The notes under the pieces were generated by a model. It did not search any database and was not told the origin of the DNA. It worked only from the letters and a program-made list of their open reading frames with translations. The position numbers were made by a program, and so were the translations under genes. A stretch of DNA of 64,000 nucleotides from Podarcis vaucheri (Eukaryota): the NCBI GenBank assembly GCA_965113315.1, contig OZ220365.1; one strand, given 5' to 3'. Of the stretch, positions 4,328 to 45,708 are shown in pieces; position 1 is the first letter of the stretch; the number at the start of each line of letters is the position of its first letter.

Positions 4328-5045
4328 GTAAGACATGCCCGGTCTTATCCAGGGTGGTTCATGTTTTGTTACAGTACAGTCCTATGCATGTCAATTGGAG
4401 GGGCAAGACTGCCACTTTGCATTCTAACTTGCCCTCTGCCCAAAAGTTTGCTATCCATGGTTAAGAGATGATGCACTGGGGGTTGGACTCATGCATTGCG
4501 TCATTCTATAATAAACTGTTAGTACAACAGCCTGGCAAGAGGGGAGCAAAGCAGCTGCAGTTGCCTCTCTGGGTTTGCACTAAGCCATGGTCATGTGCAA
4601 ACCAGTCCAGGGTCTGAGGGATCATGCACTCAATCCTTCCTGAGAACACAGACTCTCACAGTTAAGGCTTATTAGGACACCAGCTTAATCTTTATTCATG
4701 CTAATTGAGCTGATCACGAGACTTGAAAAAACAGGACCGATTGATTTTGAGTTTCTTGGCTTTCTTTCTGGTTTCATATCACCTGGATATTTTTTAGCTC
4801 ATTGTTGCATCCATGAGGGCTAGCAACATATATATATATATATATATTAAAATAATAATAAAATGTGAGGTTATCTGTGTCTAGCAGGTGCCAGTTTTCT
4901 TTCCAAAACGATTTCTGAGTTGCTGGATCCTAAAGCATCCCTTCTCTTGTTCAGAAGAAAAAGGTGACTTGCCAATCTCGCCACTAAAGCCTTAAAGCCA
5001 ACTATGCAGAATATCTACATGGTTACGGTTTGAAATTGGATGGAT

Positions 5046-5300
5046 CAGCCAGTGTGGTGTAGTGGTTAAGAGTGGTGGACTCGTAATCTGGTGAACCGGG
5101 TTCGCGTCTCCGCTCCTCCACATGCAGCTGCTGGGTGACCTTGGGCTAGTCACACTTCTCTGAAGTCTCTCAGCCCCACTCACCTCACAGAGTGTTTGTT
5201 GTGGGGGAGGAAGCGAAAGGAGAATGTTAGCCGCTTTGAGACTCCTTAGGGTAGTGATAAAGCGGGATATCAAATCCAAACACTTCTTCTACTACTACTT
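5046..5300 (+). mobile_element. tRNA/CORE SINE (Squam3-like)
   Basis: A/B-box head tgtggtgtagtggttaag...gggttcg, CORE gggtgaccttggg, (TTC/TAC) tail. Confidence 0.85.
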
Positions 5301-5342
5301 GTGGCTTAAATGTTTGCCTTTCCTCTCCCCTTACACAACTAG

Positions 5343-5567
5343 GAAACTCACCAAAACCTAGCCAATAAGAAAGGCCTCTACGTCGTAGAATTCTGTGAAG
5401 AACGCGGCCCGCTTCCTGTTGTCGTCGCAAAGCCCCAGGGGGCGATCAGAGAAGATCCAGAGCCCGAGGATGAAGCTCTCAATGTCAAATTGGAGTTCAG
5501 TGAAGTGAAGGCAGCGCAAGGAATGAAGAAGAACGTCTGGGCAAATGTGAGAAGAACAGCTTCGTAG
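5343..5567 (+). CDS. MRPS5: MRPS5 last coding exon
   Basis: Acceptor AG at 5341-5342, in frame with the previous exon; encodes [44 protein letters not shown]...[15 protein letters not shown], matching the MRPS5 C-terminus. Confidence 0.95.
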
Positions 5568-5885
5568 ACCGGGTCCGTTTATAGATGCCCAAAAGCCGAG
5601 AAAGATGTACCATCGACACAGAGTCCTAGAATTAATTTCCAAGATAAATGCTGTATGAAGGTTTCATTCTAACTTAGGGGCTCAAAACAGCTTGGCTGCC
5701 TCTCTCCAGTGGGCACTCTCTCTCTGTTGAGTGCAAGTGACCAATGCACTAAAATTGCAATTTCATAACTGCATCTGCTTTATTGCAGCTGACCCGGGCC
5801 ATGGAGGGGTGGGAGAGCCTGCAACCTACAGGTTGCTTTCATGCGTAATTTGGGGAGGGGGTGAACTGTCAGACAACGTGGCAGA

Positions 5886-5891: not shown

Positions 5892-7177
5892 GTTGTGACA
5901 AAATCCTGTCCTGCCTACTGATTTGTTTCGCAGCATCTATATACTGTCTGATTGTTAATAAAACCTCTAAGCGGGCCACGCACAAAATTTAAAACTGTCG
6001 CTAAAAAGATGCTTAAAGACAGGCATTGAAGACGTTTGCAAGCTAATTAAAGTCAAAAGCTAGCATTAAAAGATTAAAACACAAGTCGGCATTCTACGTT
6101 AATTGACTGAACAAAAATGTTTTAAGCCAGCACCAAAGGAAACACAGCAAAGCCCTCCCCCCGCCTCCTGTCAATCAGCAGGGAGTTCCAGAGTTTAGGC
6201 ACTGCCACACTAAAAAAACTAATTGTCTCCTTGCACAGTGTTGGAGGCAACTAAGATTTTGCTTCAAGGCACCACTATTTTAAAGAAATAAAATCCACAA
6301 GCTTGCCAGAAACATGCCTTGTACTCAATTGTTTTAAATGTTTGTTTTGCTATTGGGATTGTAGTTCCATTTGTGTTTCTCAAGCTGGTCTCTGACCGTA
6401 ATAAATTTCATGCCTTGTACTCAAGAAAAGCACTACCCAGTCCTGTTAGCGGTGTAAGAAAGGGGGAGATAGAAAGCACCTGAAAGTCTGCTCTTGAAGG
6501 AATTCATTTCAAACAAACAAACGAAAAACAAGACCTATTGTTAAGAGAGAGATTGGGCTACAGTTGTAATAGTCATTCCAAAATGCATCCGCCACAATCC
6601 AGCAAACTCTTATAAATGCAGGTGATTTGAACCATGTATATTGAGAGCTTTCCCATCCGCGGTGGAAGCCTCATTAATTTCAATAGAGGCAGAAGGTCTT
6701 CACAGATGTTCCTGTAGGCATGCAGCCTGCGCTGCGCTGTGCTTCTGGATTAAGATGAATGAGAATAATAGCTGTTTTTATGGCTTCCCCCATTAAAGCA
6801 GCAGCGGCAGGGGATCAAGGGTTGCCAACCTTTTCAGGGCCGGTGGAATTTCGATGATAAAGCGCCCGCAACAACAACAAAAATGTGTGCTGTGCTGTGC
6901 TGTATCCAACAGATACTGGGGCAGGGGAGAGAGAGAGAGAGAGGACCACAAAATGGGATGCCCCATTAACAGGGGGGAAGTCACCTCCATCAGCTGTGGC
7001 TTCCCCTTGCTCACAAACAAGCTCCTTGCACCTCTTCTCTGTTCAGAATGGCAGGGAAGGTGGGAGTCAAAACCTGGCATCCAATAGGGAGTGGGGCATT
7101 TTCGATATCGGAGATGCTGAGAAGCAAACAAGAACTGAGCAGGAGGAGCCAACAGTGAGTTTTTGAGGGGGATAGGT

Positions 7178-7347
7178 CATGGGTAGGCAAACTAAGGCCC
7201 AGGGCCGGATCCAGCCCAATCGCCTTCTAAATCCAGCCCACGGACAGTCCGGGAATCAGCATGTTTTTACATGAGTAGAATGTGTGCTTTTATTTAAAAT
7301 GCATCTCTGGGTTATTTCTGGGGCATAGGAATTCGTTCATTTCCCCC

Positions 7348-7386
<39 letters not shown>

Positions 7387-7455
7387 TCCGCCCCCCCCCC
7401 CAAGGTCTGTGGGACAGTGGACCGGCCCTCTGCTGAAAAAGTTTGCTGACCCCTG
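7178..7455. mobile_element. hAT MITE containing a (GATA)n microsatellite
   Basis: 8-bp TSD GGATAGGT; CA.GGGT.GCAAAC TIRs; (TAGA)n at 7348-7386; a partial copy lies at 58624-58805. Confidence 0.85.
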
Positions 7456-7874
7456 GGATAGGTGCACGAACTTAATAGACAATTGGTCTCAAGAAGCCCG
7501 GACAACAGCATTGATGCAGAAACCCACATGCTCAGTACGAGAACAGGAACACAATCTGGCAATGCTTTTGTGGTTTGGAACCTCTTCATTGGCTATGCAG
7601 CTGGGGTGGCCACTTCCCAGCCCCCCATGCCCTCTGATGAAAGGGTGTCCTTAACTAAGAGACACTAGGGGTGTCTGCTGTCACCGGAGCACAACTTGTT
7701 CTCTGCGAACTCGCTTGGTCGCCTCTTGAGATCCGGCTTACCATCCACCACACTACCAACAGTTTCCCTGGACTCTTGACACTTCCAGGGTCATCCAGCT
7801 CCCTGAGCTCCTCTCCTTGGGATCAGACCACCACTCGCCCCTCCATGATACCTCCACAGGACTTAGGACAAATA

Positions 7875-8100
7875 CAGTGGTACCTCGGGTTAAGTACTTA
7901 ATTCGTTCCAGAGGTCCATTCTTAACCTGAAACTGTTCTTAACCTGAAGCACCACTTTAGCTAATGGGGCCTCCTGCTGCCGCCGCGCAGCCGGAGCACG
8001 ATTTCTGTTCTCATCCTGAAGCAAAGTTCTTAACCTGAGGTACTATTTCTGGGTTAGCGGAGTCTGTAACCTGAAGCTTATGTAACCCAAGGTACCACTG
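7875..8100. mobile_element. Tigger/TcMar-type MITE
   Basis: TA-cagtggtacct...aggtaccactg-TA; an inverted copy lies at 22292-22517. Confidence 0.85.
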
Positions 8101-8292
8101 TACAGATTTGGCAAAAGGCAGGTCCCGCAAAGCAAAAACCTTTTAACTGTCAAAGGCCAGGATAAAAAGGTACACCTTCAAAATGCACCAAACAACAAAG
8201 GTGCTGCATATACCCCTTTGGGGAGGGAGTTTCACAGTTTAGGGTCTGTGTGTTGCCATTGCAGAGTGTGTGCCTATGTGTGCGCTTTGAAC

Positions 8293-9165: not shown

Positions 9166-10192
9166 GGTCTGAGCCACCCACTAACCACAGGTACTTTATT
9201 TTTCCTGTACATAACTTAAAAAAAAAAAAAAATCATACACGTGTTCTTTGTGGTCTATCTAGTCCTTCATTCATCTGTGGCATCATGAACCAGCATCAAT
9301 TTACTGCCCAGCCTTGAAGAGAATTTTTTTTTTGGGGGGGTGTTATTGCAAGAGTGCACAGACTTCCGCCCACAAACCGTGTGTCATATTGACCCATCTA
9401 TGTAATATTTCCATGGAGAAGCAGCTCCACCGGCAGCCTAATGAACAACAGCGAGAAAGAGACACTCTTCTGTGTTCTCCCAACAGATTTCTGGATCTTG
9501 CTTCCAAAGGCTTGCGAAGTCAGGTTTTAGTGCTTACGGTGAAATGGACGGTTTGAAGCAATAAGCCAATTTTACTATTTCAGTTGTGAATCTTGATTTT
9601 CGTTTTTGTGCTGTATTTTATGCGGCATTTTGGAAATATATTTTGAAAGGCAGCTTAGAAGTCTTTTTTCATCAGGCACGGGGAGCCTGTGCCCCTCCAC
9701 ATATTCCTGGATTACCACCCTGCCCAAACCATTGATCAGACTGGTTTAAGAAATAAATGGATGACCAGAAGAGCTGCAGTTTCCTTTAGGACACACGACA
9801 GCCACCAGGTGGCACTCTTCTCTGTACTCCATTGTCCCCTTGACAAAAGGCAGGGGAAAGATCTTGTTCCAGAGGTCATAGATAAAAAGCTACTGAACTG
9901 AGGAACATGGCTTATTCAGGGATAGGAAGCTAACGCACTTCGACCTTGGGGCCCAGATGTTGTGGGACTCCATCTCCTATCACCACAGTCAGGCAGCGTG
10001 GGCGATGATCAGGGATGGTGGAGCTAAAGTTGAGCAACATCTGCAGAGCCAAAAATTCATCATCCTTGGCTTCTCTGAAACCCTTAAACTCTCTAGAGCA
10101 GTGGGTTGAGATAGTGGCATAGCGTGGGTTGCAAACACCCGGGGATGCATGGAGGAGGGTGGGAAACTGAGTACACATGATTATTCAGCTGA

Positions 10193-11171: not shown

Positions 11172-11338
11172 CAGTGGCGTAGCGTGGGTTGTCAGCACCC
11201 GGGGCAAGGCAAGTAATTTGCACCCCCTAACCCGTGGATTTGCGCCCCCTAACCCATGGATTTGCGCCCCCTAACCCTAACCCCCAGATGTTGTGCCCGG
11301 TGCGGCCGCGCCCCCTGCACCCCCATGCTACGCCACTG
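11172..11338. mobile_element. hAT MITE, same family as 8293-8432, inverted
   Basis: Same TIRs; 8-bp TSD GGAATTCC. Confidence 0.9.
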
Positions 11339-12821
11339 GGAATTCCTTAAAAATAATCGAGAAGATGAATTAATTCCAATTGTTTTTAATGGGTGTGCCA
11401 CTGTCTCATTCTCACATAAAATGTTTTGTTGATCCTGTTCCTGTTGCCGAGGCTCTTATCAGATTTTGCCACTGAGGTCATGGCTCTAGCAGCATTGCAT
11501 GGAATTTGTGGAAATGACTCTGAATAGGAGGAAAGGCGCAGTTCGGAATCAGTGATGTTCAAAAGGTCATGCTGAGTCATTGTACCTAGGATTTTTAATT
11601 TTTATTTTTAAACCCACTCCGTATTATGCTCAGCTAATTACTTTAAACAAATTAGTGGGGGAACTGAGATTTGCATTTGTTTTAATTGCTGTTGCTGAGG
11701 GTTTCAAGCAGCGTCCTCCCACACTCCAGGAAGAAATAATTAGATCTCAAGAAATAATAAGAAACCATTGGTGCAGACGGTGCTCCCTTTTGCCATTGGA
11801 GTTTCTCCATTGCTGAGCAGGTAGCTGGTTATTCAGGCATGCAGAGATCTGTAAAGCAGGTTAAGTTCTAGCCATCAACTCATATAAAATGATATAACTT
11901 AGCTAGTTAGAACGTGTCTACAATTCTGTGTCTACTATTTTAAAATATTTGAGGTGACCAATCTGAAAGTTTAAAGCAAACAGAAATGAAGCACCTCTTT
12001 ATACAGCTCAGCATGTCCTTATCCTGAAGAAATCATTCCCACAGCATGTCATGACGGCTACTGTACTTGCCAAAGCAGATTTTAAAAATATATGAGTACA
12101 GGGAGGACAGAGGGGAGGCCATATGGGCCACTTGGCCTCCGATTCCAAGGGGGCCTCAGTCAGCATACATTCTCTATGTATTTTTAAAAAGCACTATTGT
12201 ATATCTATATTTTCCATTTTGTCTTTATATGCAGATACGGTTCAAGCCTTGAAATAAAATTATTTGTCAGCATAACTTTTGTGAAAATTATTTATATACT
12301 TACCATATTTTTCGCTCCATAAGACACACTTTTTTCTTCCTAAAAAGTAAGGGGAAATGTCTGTGCGTCTTATGGAGCGAATGCGTGGTCCCTGGAGCCG
12401 AATTGCCCAAGGGCAAAAAGCAGATCATGCTTTTTTTTTTTTGAAAGCAGGAAGTGGATGTTGAAACAAAGCCGCTGATCGGGGAGAGAGATAAGGGATG
12501 CTAGAGATAAAGGAGGGAGGGAGGGGGGAGGTAAAAGCCCATGGATCCTCAGGGTTTTAATTCACCATCAGATCACACAGCATGTACATGGCTACAGCCT
12601 GCACCAAAAAAATCACGCACCCACTGTTGCCTGGGACCGCAATGGCACAAAAATGTGGTTACAAAGCACGGATCCACATGGATCCTCAGGATTTTTGCAT
12701 TGGGTCACCCCAAATTCATCATCAGATCACATGTCTGTGACCACAGCATGAACCACAAAAATCATACATCCACTGTTTCGTTGAGAATATTTTTTTTCTT
12801 GTTTTCCTTTCCTCCTCCTAA

Positions 12822-13550
12822 TAAAGGGAGATGGGAAAGGTTTCTCTCAATATTTTCTGTGCTTTGTATTCTGTACCGAAGAAAGGTTGCTCTCAAATAT
12901 TATCTACACATAGTAAATTCCTGCACTCTGCTAGGATGGTTACACAGCTCAAACTCAAAAATGCAGTTACGTGCAAAAGTCTAAATCAGACAGGTCAAAA
13001 GTCCATTTCCTGCCTAACCAGCTATTTGAAACTGCTGATGTTAGCTACAGGTCAGGAGGTCGTTTCCTGCCTAGCCAGAAACTGCTGTTAACTAAAACCA
13101 CTAGCAAGCTGTTTCCTGCTTTGCTTCTGCTTTAACTAATGCAAGAATAAGAAAAGATACGAAGGGAATGCTTAGCTAGCAAAAGAAGACACGTGTATGA
13201 AGGAGAGGGAAGGGAGTGCTTGGTTAGCAGAAAGACAGGAATGTTTAGCAAGCAATAAAATGTGTTTAGCAAGCAATATTTGCTAGCCGATTGGGGAAGT
13301 CTGGGGAAGGTGTGGGAGGGGGGGGAGTGTTCAGAAAAGTATAAGAAAGTCTGCTGAAGTGTCTTGCTTTACAGCCAGAATATTTTCAGGAGCTATCCAG
13401 CTGGTTGTCTCTGGGTACAGATTATCTCTGTGCACAGATTTTCAATAAACTCTTTTTCTCCAAAGAAGATTTTGCTTTCCTGGTACTTTTGTTCCCTCCG
13501 AGGTCCAGGGGATGGCGTGGCTAATGGATCCCTAGGTAAATAAGGCTTCA
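12822..13550 (+). repeat. ERV 5' LTR (729 bp)
   Basis: Direct repeat of 18181-18902; TATA-like TATAAGA at ~13340, AATAAA at 13444; ends in CTTCA. Confidence 0.95.
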
Positions 13551-13556
13551 TCTCTC

Positions 13557-13574
13557 TGGGGGCTCGTCCGGGAT
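13557..13574 (+). promoter_or_regulatory. Primer binding site, tRNA-Pro
   Basis: TGGGGGCTCGTCCGGGAT, the MLV-type tRNA-Pro PBS. Confidence 0.95.
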
Positions 13575-14189
13575 AAGCCCCCTCCCCAATACGGACCGGA
13601 GGGCCAGGCTCAACCAAAGTGAACAGCTCAGCAGCGTTTGCAGGCTCCCTGCGCACCCCACCTGTTTCGTGGGGAGAGCCAGCCACACTGTTCTGGAGTG
13701 GAGACATCTAGTTGAGGGAGAACAAGAGGACAGGACGGCGCCGAGGGGACAGGTCCGCAGCGGAAAAAGGTAAGCCCGAAGGAAAGGGCTAGGGGCCCGA
13801 GGGAAAGGGCCAGAGGCCTGATCAGCCTCACCTGGTAGCAGTAAGAGTGCCACCAGGAAAGGAATTGGTAAGGTTTGGGAAAGGGAATGGGGCGCCAGTA
13901 AGGTTTGGGAAAGGGAATGGGGCAGAGGGAATTGTGTGTGTGTGTTTTTGGCATGTTGCATGTCAGAATTATTTTGGTGTATTGCATGCTGGAGTTATTT
14001 TGGTGTGTTTAGTGTGTTATATTGATGTGTTTTGTATGTTGTATGTTGCATGTCAGATACTCTAGTGACTGAATTGTCAAGTGTGGGCCAAGGCTTAGTG
14101 TCCCCTTGGCCGAGCGATTGTAAGGTTGTGCATTTTCTGACAATATGTAGCATGTGGAGTGTGAGAGAATTTTGAAACCCTGTTAGGAG

Positions 14190-15156
14190 CGGAGTATCTG
14201 AATGCTTTTTAAATAACTGGAAAGCGGCCACGAAGAGTGATGATTTGGGGATTCAAATTGAAAAGAACAGAGACTCAGAACTTTATGTGAGGTGGACTTG
14301 CCGACCCAGGGAACTGTGTGGCTTTGATTTGCAATTAATCAACCCCCCCTGTGGCGAATCAACCCCCTGTGGCAAAATATATTAAATGTCCACCCAGACC
14401 AGGTCCCCTATATCTCTACATGGAAGACCAATGTAGAAAAGAATCTACCATGGCTAAAGTTTTGCTGTGACAGCAACACACAGAACAGGATTTGTACAGT
14501 GAAGCCTCTGGTGTTAGAAGACCCAGAAGATGAGGAGAGGGGAGTGATTAAGCCACCACCTTACACTCCAGCAACAGCCCCTCCAACAACCCCCCAGGCC
14601 AAAATCAAGAAGCACAGGGAGGTACTGGTGTAGGGGGAGGAGGACCTGCGAAGGAGGATAGTGAGACGGAAGAAGAGGAAGATGACGAAGAGTTTAGGAA
14701 GATACTAGATGATATGAATCAAGGAAAGAAAATGTGGACAGAAAAACAGAAAAAGAGACTAAAGGAGTTTGTAAAGCCATTTGAGGAAGAAGTTGGATGT
14801 GAGTCCCTTGTTAGTTGAGGCAACAGAAATGCTACACCCCTGAAAAGAGGAAGTGGGGACAGGCGGCGAAGAAAGTTATGTCTCACAGACAGTATGAGAA
14901 AACCAGGAAGGATCAGGCAGCCGGAGTAATGCCCCTTCGGAGGGTTTATGATCCACCAGCCCCTGTCCCAGCTGGACAAGCGAAGACACAGCATATACCC
15001 TTTTCAAGTGCAGATGTTTGTAATTGGAGAAATCAGAACCCCTCTTTTGAGGAGAATCCAGCAAAGATCATAAAACTGTTTGAAGGGATTTTTAAAACCT
15101 AAAATCCCACTTATGATGATGTACAATATCTCCTGGACTCACTACCAACTACAGAA
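14190..15156 (+). pseudogene. gag: ERV gag remnant (MA, PPPY late domain, N-terminal half of CA)
   Basis: HPDQVPYISTW (gamma MA motif), PPPY at ~14553, PLR...PFSSADVCNWRNQNPSFEENP...NPTYDDVQYLL (p30 CA); contains stops and frameshifts. Confidence 0.85.
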
Positions 15157-17148
15157 GCATTGCTTGGCCCCTGCATGAGTCAACTAGGGGAATAGAGAAG
15201 GATCTTTTTATATGGGGCAGGGAACAGCAACAGGCTTTTCAGGATTTCAAAGTGGCATTATAACAAGCCTCAGCGCTTGGCATCCAAACCCCGAGAAGCC
15301 TTTTAACCTGTTCATAGATGAAGACCAGGGGGGTAGCCAAGGGAGTCTTATGCCAGAAACTGAAAAATTGGCAGCAACCTGTCGCATACTTGTCAGAGAA
15401 GCTAACCCCAACAGAACAGAGGTTGCCCCCCACCCTGTATGAGAGCGATTGTGGCAGTGGCCACCCTACTCACAAAGGCAGATAAATTCACGTTTGGACA
15501 GGACACCACCTGTGTGACTCCACACGCAGTCCCAGCACTGCTTGACATGAAGGGTACCTATTTCCTCTCCCAAGCAAAGATGAGAAAGTGTCAGATGTTA
15601 TTGTTGCACCCGCGTTTGAAGTTCCAGGTCACCACTGCCCTCAACCCAGCTACCCTGTTGCCGGTAGGAGAAGGTGAGGAGCAGATGCACGATTGCATTG
15701 AAGTAATGGACGAAGTATATTCCAGCAGGCCTGATCTCAAAGACGAGACAAACGAGGCTGGGCAGCGGAAGGCAGGCTATGCAGTGGTAGCCCTGGAAGA
15801 CCAGGTGATTGAAGCAAAGTCACTCCCGCCTGGAACATCGGCCCAGCTGGCAGAACTAACTGCGCTTACCAGAGCCCTGAGCCTGGCAAAGGGACAGAAG
15901 ATAAACATTTATGCAGATTCTAAGTATGCATTCCTGACTTTACATGCCCATGGAGCCTTATGGAAAGAAAGAGGTTTGCTTACCTCCAGAGGAAGCCAGG
16001 TGGCCCACCCACAAGCCTTATTGAACCTTCTGGATGCTGTATGGGAGCCCGAAGCAGTAGCGGTTATCCATTGTTATGGACACACAACTGGACCAGGGGA
16101 AGTGGCCAGAGGAAATCGATTGGCAGACAAAGTGGCCAAGGAAGCAGCCCGGGAACTGGCCCCAGCTCCGATCATTGGAGCACTGATCCCAGAAGAAATT
16201 TTAAGCACCGCTGACAAGCCGGCCTACACAAAGCAGGAAAGGGACACTGCAGATGCCCAGGAGTTGACATTGTCCAAAGAAGGATGGTACCTCACCCCTG
16301 ATGACAGGATATGGATTCCAGAGTCCCTGCCCCGGCAAATAACTCAGAAATACCATGAGTCAACCCACATGGGGCCAGATGCCACAACCAAGCAGCTGGA
16401 GAAGTATGTCTATATAGCCAACCTTTATCAACTGGCAGCCCAGATTTCCAGGAAATGCCTGCTATGCCAAAAGAATAATCCCAGAACTCACTCCAGACGA
16501 TGTGGAACCACGTTACACCCTTGATGAACAGCAGTGGACCAGCCAAGAAGGAGCAACGCTCCAGGAAGGACCAGACAGCCGTGTTTTTGTGCCCCAACAT
16601 CTGGCCAGCACAATTGTAAAGAATTACCACGAGTCCACCCATTTGGGAGGCCCAGCTGCTAAAGCACACCTTGGGAGAATATTCTATCTCAACTAACTGC
16701 TGCTATAACTAACTGCTGCTATATCCCAAAATGTGCCCTGTGCGCCAACCAAGAGACTGAGAACTATCACCCTTTGAACTTCTATATGGCAGGCCAACCC
16801 CTTTCGTCCGAGACATCCCCGCCAGTTTGGGGCAGATGGGAGATCACATCACCCAAGAACAAGTGCAATCCCTGTGTTTGTTGTGTGTGTTTGCTTCCTT
16901 TCCAGGTATTCCCTCGAGCGTACACCTGCAGTCCCGCGGCAGTCTCGCTGAGCCGGTTCACCAGTTCCTCTGGGTGATAGCGTCTGGCGACCCCCTCATC
17001 CCCAACTGCAGTGAAAGTAGTCGAGGTGATCCCCTGGGTACATCACACGCATCTGAAGAAGGGTGTCTGGACTTGCAAGAGAAATCCTGCTGACCCTCTG
17101 AAGTTGATCATCACCTTGTGTCTGACGCTACCAGGGAAAAAGCGTTAG
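15157..17148 (+). pseudogene. pol: ERV pol remnant (RT connection, RNase H, two IN N-terminal domains, IN C-terminus)
   Basis: KPFNLFIDE, LNPATLLP, SAQLAELTAL, NIYADSKYAF, GNRLAD, YHESTHMG..CLLC, LSPFELLYGRP, PTAVKV...WVHHTHLK. Confidence 0.9.
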
Positions 17149-17238
17149 GCCACGGGCAACGAGATCCTGCGACTAATCATCACAAGGACAGTTACAAAGA
17201 CTTTTTCTTTTCTCTCATTTTCTTTATTGACTTGTTCT

Positions 17239-17646
17239 ATGTCTCATTGCCCTGACCCTACCGAACCATACCAACCCTACTGGCCTGCTGGCCTCTGCTA
17301 CGACTGGTTCGTCTTGCCGGTGGTAAGAGATGGCGTGCTCTTTGGCTATTGGAAACTGGGGTTTGATGAGATTGCCGTATTGAGACACCCCACTGCCCCG
17401 TTGTGGCTCCTCTCTCACACCACTGACCAGCACGCGTGGACAGTGCTCATACGGGAAGTTGCAGAGACGATCGAAATCTATCAAGTTCTGGACCACTCTT
17501 GCTGTTGTGGGAGGGTAGTCAACTGTTATCTGGGAGGTAGCGCACTGTACCAACCTCATTTGATAGACCAGGTCCTACTCTTAATCCAGGTGATAGATGG
17601 GACGGAACCTATCTTAATGCAAGTATTGCAGGGGTGGGAGCCTTAG
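17239..17646 (+). CDS. Unknown ERV-internal ORF (135 aa) in the env position
   Basis: First ATG downstream of the acceptor at 16905; open to TAG at 17646; no recognisable homology. Confidence 0.4.
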   Translation: MSHCPDPTEPYQPYWPAGLCYDWFVLPVVRDGVLFGYWKLGFDEIAVLRHPTAPLWLLSHTTDQHAWTVLIREVAETIEIYQVLDHSCCCGRVVNCYLGGSALYQPHLIDQVLLLIQVIDGTEPILMQVLQGWEP

Positions 17647-17961
17647 CCAGGTGTGCATTGGAATTGCTAAACAAGTGCCAGTAAGAATTGCCACCCCAGG
17701 ATTTCAGCTTCCATATGCTCTGGTCACTAGGGAGGCAGCACGAGAGTTCAATCCACCCAACAGGGTTAGTAGAAAAATTGACCCACATAGTGGGAGCATC
17801 AGCTCACCGGTGGGCTCTCATCCTTGAGGCTCAACAGGTAGTCGGGCACAAATATCAGTGGGCTCTTCAATATTGGTGGGAGGAACCATGGAGATATTGG
17901 GTTTGGTGGGTAGGAGTGATATGTACCGCCCTTGTCATATGGATGCTCTCGTATTTCTGTT

Positions 17962-18153
17962 GGCATGAACGGTATCGTATTTGTGGGAAGAATAGGCCCA
18001 ATAATGCTTCTATTGCTTTTCTGCTTCTGTATCCCCTGCTTATTGCAATGCTTGCAGCAAATGATGCAAAGACTCCTGTTACGAGAGCTAGGACCCACGG
18101 TCATCGCTGTGATGAGGGAGTATAGGCCCATACCCCAGAACGAATCTAAGTAA
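17962..18153 (+). pseudogene. env: env TM membrane anchor and cytoplasmic tail remnant
   Basis: IGPIMLLLLFCFCIPCLLQCLQQ...YRPI...*: hydrophobic anchor, PC motif and YxxPhi motif, directly before the PPT. Confidence 0.75.
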
Positions 18154-18180
18154 TAGATTGTTCAAAAGAAGAGGAGGGAG

Positions 18181-18902
18181 TAAAGGGAGATGGGAAAGGT
18201 TTCTCTCAATATTTTCTGTGCTTTGTATTCTGTACCGAAGAAAGGTTGCTCTCAAATATTATCTACACATAGTAAATTCCTGCACTCTGCTAGGATGGTT
18301 ACACAGCTCAAACTCAAAAATGCAGTTACGTGCAAAAGTCTAAATCAGACAGGTCAAAAGTCCATTTCCTGCCTAACCAGCTATTTGAAACTGCTGATGT
18401 TAGCTACAGGTCAGGAGGTCGTTTCCTGCCTAGCCAGAAACTGCTGTTAACTAAAACCACTAGCAAGCTGTTTCCTGCTTTGCTTCTGCTTTAACTAATG
18501 CAAGAATAAGAAAAGATACGAAGGGAATGCTTAGCTAGCAAAAGAAGACACGTGTATGAAGGAGAGGGAAGGGAGTGCTTGGTTAGCAGAAAGACAGGAA
18601 TGTTTAGCAAGCAATAAAATGTGTTTAGCAAGCAATATTTGCTAGCCGATTGGGGAAGTCTGGGGAGGGGGGGGGAGAGTGTTCAGAAAAGTATAAGAAA
18701 GTCTGCTGAAGTGTCTTGCTTTACAGCCAGAATATTTTCAGGAGCTATCCAGCTGGTTGTCTCTGGGTACAGATTATCTCTGTGCACAGATTTTCAATAA
18801 ACTCTTTTTCTCCAAAGAAGATTTTGCTTTCCTGGTACTTTTGTTCCCTCCGAGGTCCAGGGGATGGCGTGGCTAATGGATCCCTAGGTAAATAAGGCTT
18901 CA
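18181..18902 (+). repeat. ERV 3' LTR (722 bp)
   Basis: Preceded by the PPT AAAAGAAGAGGAGGG; differs visibly from the 5' LTR only in a G-rich tract (net 7 bp). Confidence 0.95.
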
Positions 18903-19166
18903 CTAAAAACTAGGTGCGTCTTATGGTCAGGTGCATCTTATGGAGCGAAAAATACGGTACTTATTTATAAGACTTCAGTTATTCCGAGGGTAAAAAGGGG
19001 GGGCACATTATCTACCCAGCCCGGGCCTCTGCCTGGCTCTGCAAGACCCTGGGGAGGAGGAGTCTTCTACCACTGTCGCTGTCTGCCAGCCCTAACAGCC
19101 AGAAATGTGATCTCCCATGTTCCAAGACAATACACTTTTGACTATCAGCTGCTGGTGATAAATGGC

Positions 19167-45535: not shown

Positions 45536-45708
45536 CCTATAATGACTGAGTGGAAGCGGCTCTTCAGTGTTTCGGGCAGGGGACTTCCTAGACCTAGGTG
45601 GAGATACTGGGGGTTGAACCAAGCACATTCTGCATGCAAAACAGATGCTCTGCCACTGAGCTATGCCCCTTACCCCTCGGGGTAGCCAACATGAACCCAT
45701 CCCTTGAT

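Follow-up and report, generated by a model that had tools for sequence, protein, structure and literature searches.

An env-deleted provirus reveals a conserved accessory gene in a family of complex, gamma-like retroviruses of lizards

We analyzed a stretch of 64,000 nucleotides from Podarcis vaucheri (GenBank assembly GCA_965113315.1, contig OZ220365.1; this whole stretch is called the window), which holds an endogenous retrovirus (ERV) at 12822-18902. Here the plain loss of env by deletion has brought to light a conserved accessory gene that belongs to a family of complex, gamma-like lizard retroviruses. The gene, open reading frame (ORF) X (or ORF1; 17239..17646, + strand; 135 amino acids), represents a family without known relatives. 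We consider it probable that the element is a recent, mosaic, env-deleted copy from a family with small genes between pol and env, with X first on a spliced leader-to-integrase (IN) RNA and its product likely a soluble adaptor that disarms host antiviral defense. An earlier note, made from the sequence alone, had proposed that a captured or novel gene for an accessory membrane protein, perhaps a single frameshifted ORF, took the place of the surface subunit (SU) and most of the transmembrane subunit (TM) of Env. No description of the lizard family was found in the literature; most subscription papers and the repeat libraries Repbase and Dfam lay outside the scope of that search, so the family may have been annotated before.

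Results

ORF X behaves like a viral gene

A search of the genome of origin with the X protein gave 150 scored matches from 178 candidates. Sixty-one of them span at least 129 of the 135 residues, and 51 of these 61 are stop-free. Over codons 1-100 the ratio of nonsynonymous to synonymous divergence (dN/dS) is 0.17-0.53 in 11 of 12 X pairs, the bootstrap interval lying below 1 in 10 of the 12. When four of the X pairs are read in the two remaining frames, as off-frame controls, the ratio is 0.67-1.29. These results show that X is under purifying selection between lineages; in this respect it behaves like a real viral gene.

The membrane protein foreseen earlier is not borne out by X, which has no membrane segment (best 19-residue hydropathy 1.59, nothing above 1.6). 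Its predicted model (pLDDT 70, pTM 0.66) presents two helices, at residues 17-31 and 106-119, and between them a five-stranded meander (33-83), with a compact fold predicted for residues 1-85. Foldseek with this model returned zero matches at E 0.001 in PDB and BFVD, and the best match of a VIA fold search (Z 5.9, polo-box and cytochrome P460) is within the noise, which reaches Z 8. Topology and a short motif had brought Vif and TCL1/MTCP1 into consideration for X; neither is listed among the fold matches, an absence that excludes nothing. A Pfam scan of X gave no match above cut-off and PDB sequence profiles gave none that was significant. Among the window ORFs and the accessory ORFs of relatives described below (X, Y, X2, Z and Y2), Pfam matches are scattered and far below cut-off, and PDB sequence profiles yielded nothing significant for the accessory ORFs.

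A profile of X searched against 1.84 billion representatives recovered 4 matches, all unnamed Logan proteins of the family formed by X and its paralogue X2, and no cellular homologue, which speaks against a captured host gene; an IMG/VR scan found no relative. The possibility that the region is ordinary env SU fails likewise, as X has no env Pfam match and, in relatives, X and env map to distinct sites that follow one another in order. A group of five X-bearing copies is found inside ~90 kb (G000:C10:120308000-120398000), perhaps by segmental or tandem amplification. A large env-deleted subfamily (L063-L070, L078-L080) keeps X (~77% identity), with Y, X2 and Z as remnants only.

X is the first long cistron behind a leader-to-IN splice

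Both strong splice signals named in the earlier note are present. The donor (13770..13775, +; AAAG|GTAAGC, GT at 13770) is used in RNA reads of family members. The acceptor in the IN remnant (16887..16905, +; AG at 16904-16905) is supported by family junction reads and has the best score among all candidates in 16300-18000; the homologous acceptor of the sister lineage is likewise top-scoring. Behind it, as the note had observed, 16906-17238 contains no ATG (equally few occur in 8 of 500 dinucleotide shuffles, mean 3.6) and the 135-residue frame opens at 17239. Exon 1 carries a 7-codon upstream ORF (13512..13535, +) with two in-frame ATGs (13512, 13524), which the note does not mention.

RNA reads were found joined as 13767>16904, which with the GT..AG cut at +2 is exactly the predicted 13769/16906 junction. 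Four such reads (3 starts) occur in run X21 and 1 in run X22, 5 in total, and none in two low-depth bulk runs (X23, X24). Runs X21 and X22 belong to one study of a related organism, and most of the reads are 90-99% alike to the window copy; among indexed sequencing runs, no RNA run was listed as containing the element. The leader-to-IN splice junction is real at the family level, and the exact joining of 13769 to 16906 makes X the first long cistron. This upholds the idea of a novel accessory gene, here one without a known family.

High-scoring acceptor candidates occur just past the X start codon in three relatives (L061:6734, L073:6770, L076:6750). Such a site inside the X start region would skip X; it is absent from the window copy and has zero read support. 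In the four-ORF lineage described next, the reads are too few and too divergent to reveal splice joints.

Relatives carry up to four ORFs between pol and env

A first set of 20 stretches was retrieved with a diverse choice of X matches; a second set of 14 consists of 12 stretches surrounding Y2 matches plus 2 close relatives of the window copy. Most of these copies have long terminal repeat (LTR) pairs that are 98-100% identical. Three layouts were found. Layout (a), pol-X-Y-X2-Z-env, marks a sister lineage to which L073-L077, 5 of the first 20 stretches, belong; in some of these a single ORF is broken. In L073 the frames lie at 6760-7158 (X), 7162-7575 (Y), 7597-7986 (X2) and 7997-8215 (Z). 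Layout (b), pol-Y2-env, is without X, has a Trp-rich leader in the env frame and accounts for 11 of the 14 stretches. Layout (c), the window type, has X with Y and Y2 remnants ahead of the leader of layout (b), and may best be read as a recombinant of (a) and (b).

X and X2 are paralogous (34% over 92 amino acids, E 2e-16), as are Y and Y2, which have the motif YSCGC...PF...H-x4-HP in common; the profiles of X and Y are unrelated (probability 0.1%). X2 ends in an Arg-rich tail. Y has a CxC and two conserved His residues, with zinc binding possible; its model is of too low confidence for use (pLDDT 40), and its profile search gave 1 match and no host homologue. Z (73 amino acids) carries a single membrane segment, at its N-terminus, and ends in an acidic tail; its reading frame overlaps the start of env and differs from that of env. 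Full-length matches are stop-free in 11 of 11 cases for Y, 10 of 10 for X2 and 37 of 40 for Y2. The dN/dS values are 0.18-0.44 for Y (3 of 4 intervals below 1), 0.25 for X2 (1 pair), 0.22 and 0.67 for Z, and 0.31-0.47 for Y2 (3 of 4 intervals below 1). The frames are open across lineages at dS ~1, and between paralogues at 33% identity.

From X to env, L073 has 5 ATGs in 1340 nt, three of them ORF starts, where 12.8 are expected from shuffled sequences (2 of 500 have so few) and where gag, pol and env segments of the same length have 21-26. Further counts are 6 in L076, 4 in 603 nt of L061 and 0 in 387 nt of L085; in one control upstream of Y2, ATG is not depleted (p 0.08). In layout (a) the Y start directly follows the X stop, and the upstream starts stand in weak contexts. 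The ATG depletion, the adjacency of X stop and Y start, and the weak starts fit leaky scanning and reinitiation. The same LINE-type fragment, presumably CR1-like, interrupts the accessory region in two copies (L068:7282-7995, L077:7251-8048). Another rearranged non-autonomous form, L090, has an env fragment between gag and reverse transcriptase (RT) pieces (~4946-5815, oriented).

env was lost through deletions

Searching the same genome with 17100-18160 of the window gave 44 matches from 40 scored of 214 candidates, and 30 loci were kept. In 5 of the 30 (L026-L030) ORF1 stands upstream of an uninterrupted env frame of 532 codons, which begins with the Trp-rich segment and ends in the same tail as the window copy; the proposed replacement of SU and TM is contradicted by this arrangement. 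The env of these relatives is gamma-type (TLV_coat 2e-18, CWLC, RNRR, ISD, CX6CC). Two env types of relatives have the gamma-type motifs (CxxC in SU, furin site, ISD, CX6CC), and in a third the exact motifs were not found. In agreement with the earlier note, none of CWxC, furin site, ISD and CX6CC occurs in the three + frames of window 16901-18160.

Alignment with five relatives reveals two breaks in the env region of the window. At 17868/17869, where env starts in relatives, 20 nt are missing, and at ~17992/17993 there is a large env gap. Both breaks are common to the window copy, L002 and L015, and RNA reads of relatives depart from the window sequence at 17992. The window copy has lost the env start and the SU/TM ectodomain through two deletions, not through replacement.

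The second open stretch that had been reported, "ORF2" (17685-18125, 146 codons, Trp-rich segment included), is a chimera, because the 20-nt deletion fuses the end of Y2 to the env leader. A single frameshifted ORF is likewise untenable, as ORF1 ends separately in relatives. Next in order after X is a remnant of Y (17630..17735, +) with its start lost and an internal deletion (11 of 15 residues identical to L073 Y, E 3e-6). Then follow the Y2 C-terminal remnant (17703..17868, +; 52% identity over 56 amino acids, E 7e-19), the Trp-rich env leader without its start (17869..17992, +), and the env TM anchor with the cytoplasmic tail (17993..18153, +; 32 of 35 residues identical to the env C-terminus of a relative). 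The anchor and tail are, as first noted, in a frame other than that of ORF2. The first 62 residues of ORF2, about half of it, are the Y2 end, the next 41 are env leader, and the remainder is TM anchor read out of frame.

The Trp-rich segment is present as described, and in the window lineage it belongs to the env leader rather than to a new gene; in the sister lineage a similar segment forms the separate ORF Z (a weak match, E 0.027). This leader is ~70 residues long and combines the Trp-rich membrane segment with a basic stretch and another hydrophobic segment; it is kept before envs otherwise only ~30% identical (L061:7330-7540, L087:7443-7640, L093:6676-6885, L085, L082), and its dN/dS is 0.11 in the single unsaturated pair. 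The leader may have a function of its own.

Anatomy of the provirus

The 5' LTR (12822..13550, +) and the 3' LTR (18181..18902, +) differ by 1 substitution and 7 gap positions in ~730 nt, and a 4-bp target-site duplication, the identical four bases, adjoins both ends of the element. The near-identity of the two LTRs marks the window element, which is non-autonomous, as a very recent insertion. The primer-binding site (13557..13574, +) is a single exact match (0 expected by chance) of the Pro type, which we take to be that of tRNA-Pro. A broken and shortened gag remnant (14176..15157, +) holds matrix (MA) and p30 pieces, with Pfam Gag_MA and Gag_p30 weak and under cut-off, and can be aligned to gag of relatives. 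In the pol remnant (15148..17150, +) protease and RT are mostly absent, while RNase H and the IN zinc-binding domain are open (RNase_H 9e-21; Integrase_H2C2 5e-11) and the 3' part of IN is mosaic: 15148-16487 matches one lineage at 87% and 16478-16748 the sister lineage at 78-80%. At the mosaic end (16350-17200) two pieces of the IN zinc-finger region from different lineages follow each other, and the splice acceptor of the window copy derives from the sister-lineage piece. The layout is dispersed in the genome, with 20 matches over the entire 1061-nt query at 88-100% (40 of 214 candidates scored), in accord with the earlier suggestion of spread by a non-autonomous ERV.

Inverted repeats of 37 nt flank the provirus (12293-12329 and 18931-18967), and it appears to have been inserted into a small DNA-transposon relic, presumably Tc2/mariner-like. 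Elsewhere, the window has 32-nt direct repeats (10113-10144 and 11173-11204; 88% identity, 1060 nt apart) and a tRNA-Ala(TGC) gene call (45597-45670, - strand).

Discussion

Roles of the accessory genes

The extra genes that lie between pol and env, conserved and as many as four, likely act as accessory proteins against host defenses. Such a role is suggested by position, size, duplication (X/X2, Y/Y2) and the absence of enzyme or membrane features; for X specifically, we rate host-defense antagonism at somewhat short of an even chance. X would be translated after the short upstream ORF, downstream cistrons would be reached via leaky scanning, stop-start reinitiation or further acceptors, and the window copy would have been mobilized in trans by helper proviruses. 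By analogy with lentiviral Vif and Vpx, X could be a soluble adaptor that binds and disarms a host antiviral factor. A wider proposal, which we judge to have close to an even chance, is that lacertids host a recently active and hitherto undescribed group of complex gamma-like retroviruses, in which a lentivirus-like central cassette (X, Y, X2, Z) evolved independently. This cassette would comprise two novel families of proteins, a membrane protein resembling Vpu and a bifunctional env leader, would be translated from a polycistronic spliced RNA, and would have been swapped between lineages by recombination to counter reptile antiviral factors.

Several points weigh against the main reading. 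The twelfth X pair, window against env-deleted L034, has a dN/dS of 0.82 (0.26-3.91), and full X in three further pairs of env-deleted copies gives 0.32, 0.68 and 1.20. Throughout, the dN/dS values come from simple counting with no transition correction and from pairs that are not independent. Because of these env-deleted pairs, continuing selection on X in non-autonomous copies is unproven; the check for dN/dS below 1 that the earlier note had called for comes out positive between lineages and unclear among env-deleted copies. That X is still open in the window copy is probably due to the youth of that copy, any continuing selection being weak at most. The final 30 residues of X differ in frame and length across lineages, the X start context is weak, and some lineages are without X, which is therefore dispensable for spread. 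The X protein and its activity are predictions. As the junction reads come from a species with reads mostly 90-99% alike to the window copy, expression of the window locus is not shown, and intron-less DNA copies are a possible source; the intron end is kept in 40 of 40 scored matches (40 of 119 candidates scored). No splice joints to downstream ORFs were seen, at very low read depth.

The same anatomy would be compatible with X and its neighbors being regulators of viral expression, that is, a Tat/Rev/Tas-like transactivator or an RNA-export factor. A genome with many cistrons must control spliced versus unspliced RNA, X2 has its Arg-rich tail and Y its potential zinc ligands, and the predicted beta-meander of X with flanking helices finds RNA-phage coat proteins among its weak fold matches (Z 4.0-4.7). 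X itself has no basic motif, every fold match is under the noise level of Z 8, and spread persists in lineages without X or with broken Y; we regard this role as unlikely, though the most credible of the alternatives. Co-option of the window locus by the host for X expression is far less probable. It would account for an intact X amid broken gag, pol and env and for the dN/dS of 0.32 (0.12-0.89) of the window copy against relative L093, yet the identical broken layout recurs in many dispersed copies, and the nearly identical LTRs mark a very recent insertion.

Slightly less probable again is a reading of the small ORFs as frames open by chance within a non-coding spacer, where only the youth of the family has kept them free of stops. 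Selection inside env-deleted subfamilies is not demonstrated, and with LTR pairs 98-100% identical, open frames within one subfamily say little. This reading is largely refuted by the frame-specific dN/dS; the frames are moreover open between lineages and paralogues as divergent as those above, ATG is depleted and X residues 1-85 have a compact predicted fold. Least probable of all is the proposal that a gene for a membrane protein, captured or novel, took the place of SU and most of TM. X is indeed the sole intact cistron after the acceptor in the window copy, and a Trp-rich hydrophobic segment comes next. In relatives, though, X and an uninterrupted env coexist, the Trp-rich segment is the env N-terminus, env was lost through plain deletions, and X has neither a membrane segment nor a host homologue among the representatives searched. 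The replacement and single-ORF readings are already refuted.

If X and its neighbors are accessory genes, the presence of as many as four of them, under selection, ahead of env in so young a family would mean that the complex layout arose a further time, in class I. The family supplies two protein families without known relatives, and their host partners would point to reptile antiviral factors, which to our knowledge are barely known. Many recent copies with differing cassettes (X-Y-X2-Z, Y2 only, X with remnants) make accessory gain, duplication, recombination and loss traceable inside one genome. By the account in PMC9723728, a reptile virome study left out retroviral transcripts.

Comparison with known systems

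In the env-bearing relatives the best PDB matches of Pol are MLV/XMRV RT (1e-213) compared with foamy virus (1e-51), and the nearest named Pol sequences are from Podarcis (90-99%) and Zootoca (77-82%). In an RT tree of 34 rows, midpoint-rooted and with no epsilon outgroup, both lineages join lacertid sequences (98/95) inside a squamate/amphibian clade (96/93); the mammalian/REV gammaretrovirus clade (100/99) is separate, and no nesting within MLV/PERV/REV is found. On this placement the family is classed as gamma-like class I and not as a strict member of Gammaretrovirus.

Gamma-type retroviruses are textbook simple retroviruses. With gammaretroviruses and class I ERVs (MLV, REV, PERV) the lizard family shares MLV-like RT, RNase H and IN with an MLV-type C-terminus, a Gag that has MA, p30 and a single CCHC, an in-frame stop between gag and pol, a gamma-type env and leader-to-IN splicing. 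The window copy itself has the Pro-type primer-binding site and the 4-bp target-site duplication, the latter given for ERV1 elements in PMC4299795, and keeps RNase H and IN pieces. The lizard family differs by its one to four extra pol-env ORFs, so the simple genome of a strict Gammaretrovirus is not found; viruses with gamma-type Env are described as typically simple (PMC9967133) and anamniote gamma-related ERVs as of typical structure (bioRxiv 10.1101/2021.11.23.469661).

Host genes have been captured by related elements, such as the purifying-selected KIT ligand of a crocodilian ERV (PMC4299795) and OGFr (bioRxiv 10.1101/2021.11.23.469661), and these too are class I-type ERVs of reptiles or anamniotes that carry an additional ORF. 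For X and Y, in contrast, no host homologue was found, and the lizard ORFs coexist with gag, pol and env of full length, none of which they replace. Outside lentiviruses, epsilonretroviruses and foamy viruses also have accessory ORFs of obscure origin, mostly 5' of gag or 3' of env. HERV-T has an ORF 5' of gag (PMC5388530). The lizard ORFs differ in location and have no sequence match to these.

Canonical signal peptides have 21-64 residues and betaretroviral ones more than 90 (PMC9967133, section 3.1). The ~70-residue lizard leader, with its Trp-rich segment kept across envs, recalls those of betaretroviral Env (MMTV Rem, JSRV); the lizard Env is gamma-type, and the likeness to Rem is by description only.

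The closest parallel in layout is the lentiviral central region (vif, vpr/vpx, vpu). In both, several ORFs of 70-140 amino acids lie between pol and env on spliced RNA, one pair is duplicated, and the last ORF encodes a single-membrane protein with an acidic tail that overlaps the env start in another frame. None of the retroviral accessory families in Pfam matched the X family (20 members scanned) or the Y family (9 members), even with E values of up to 10 admitted, and the lizard Pol, unlike that of lentiviruses, is class I. The likeness of the lizard cassette to the lentiviral layout would be at most convergent.

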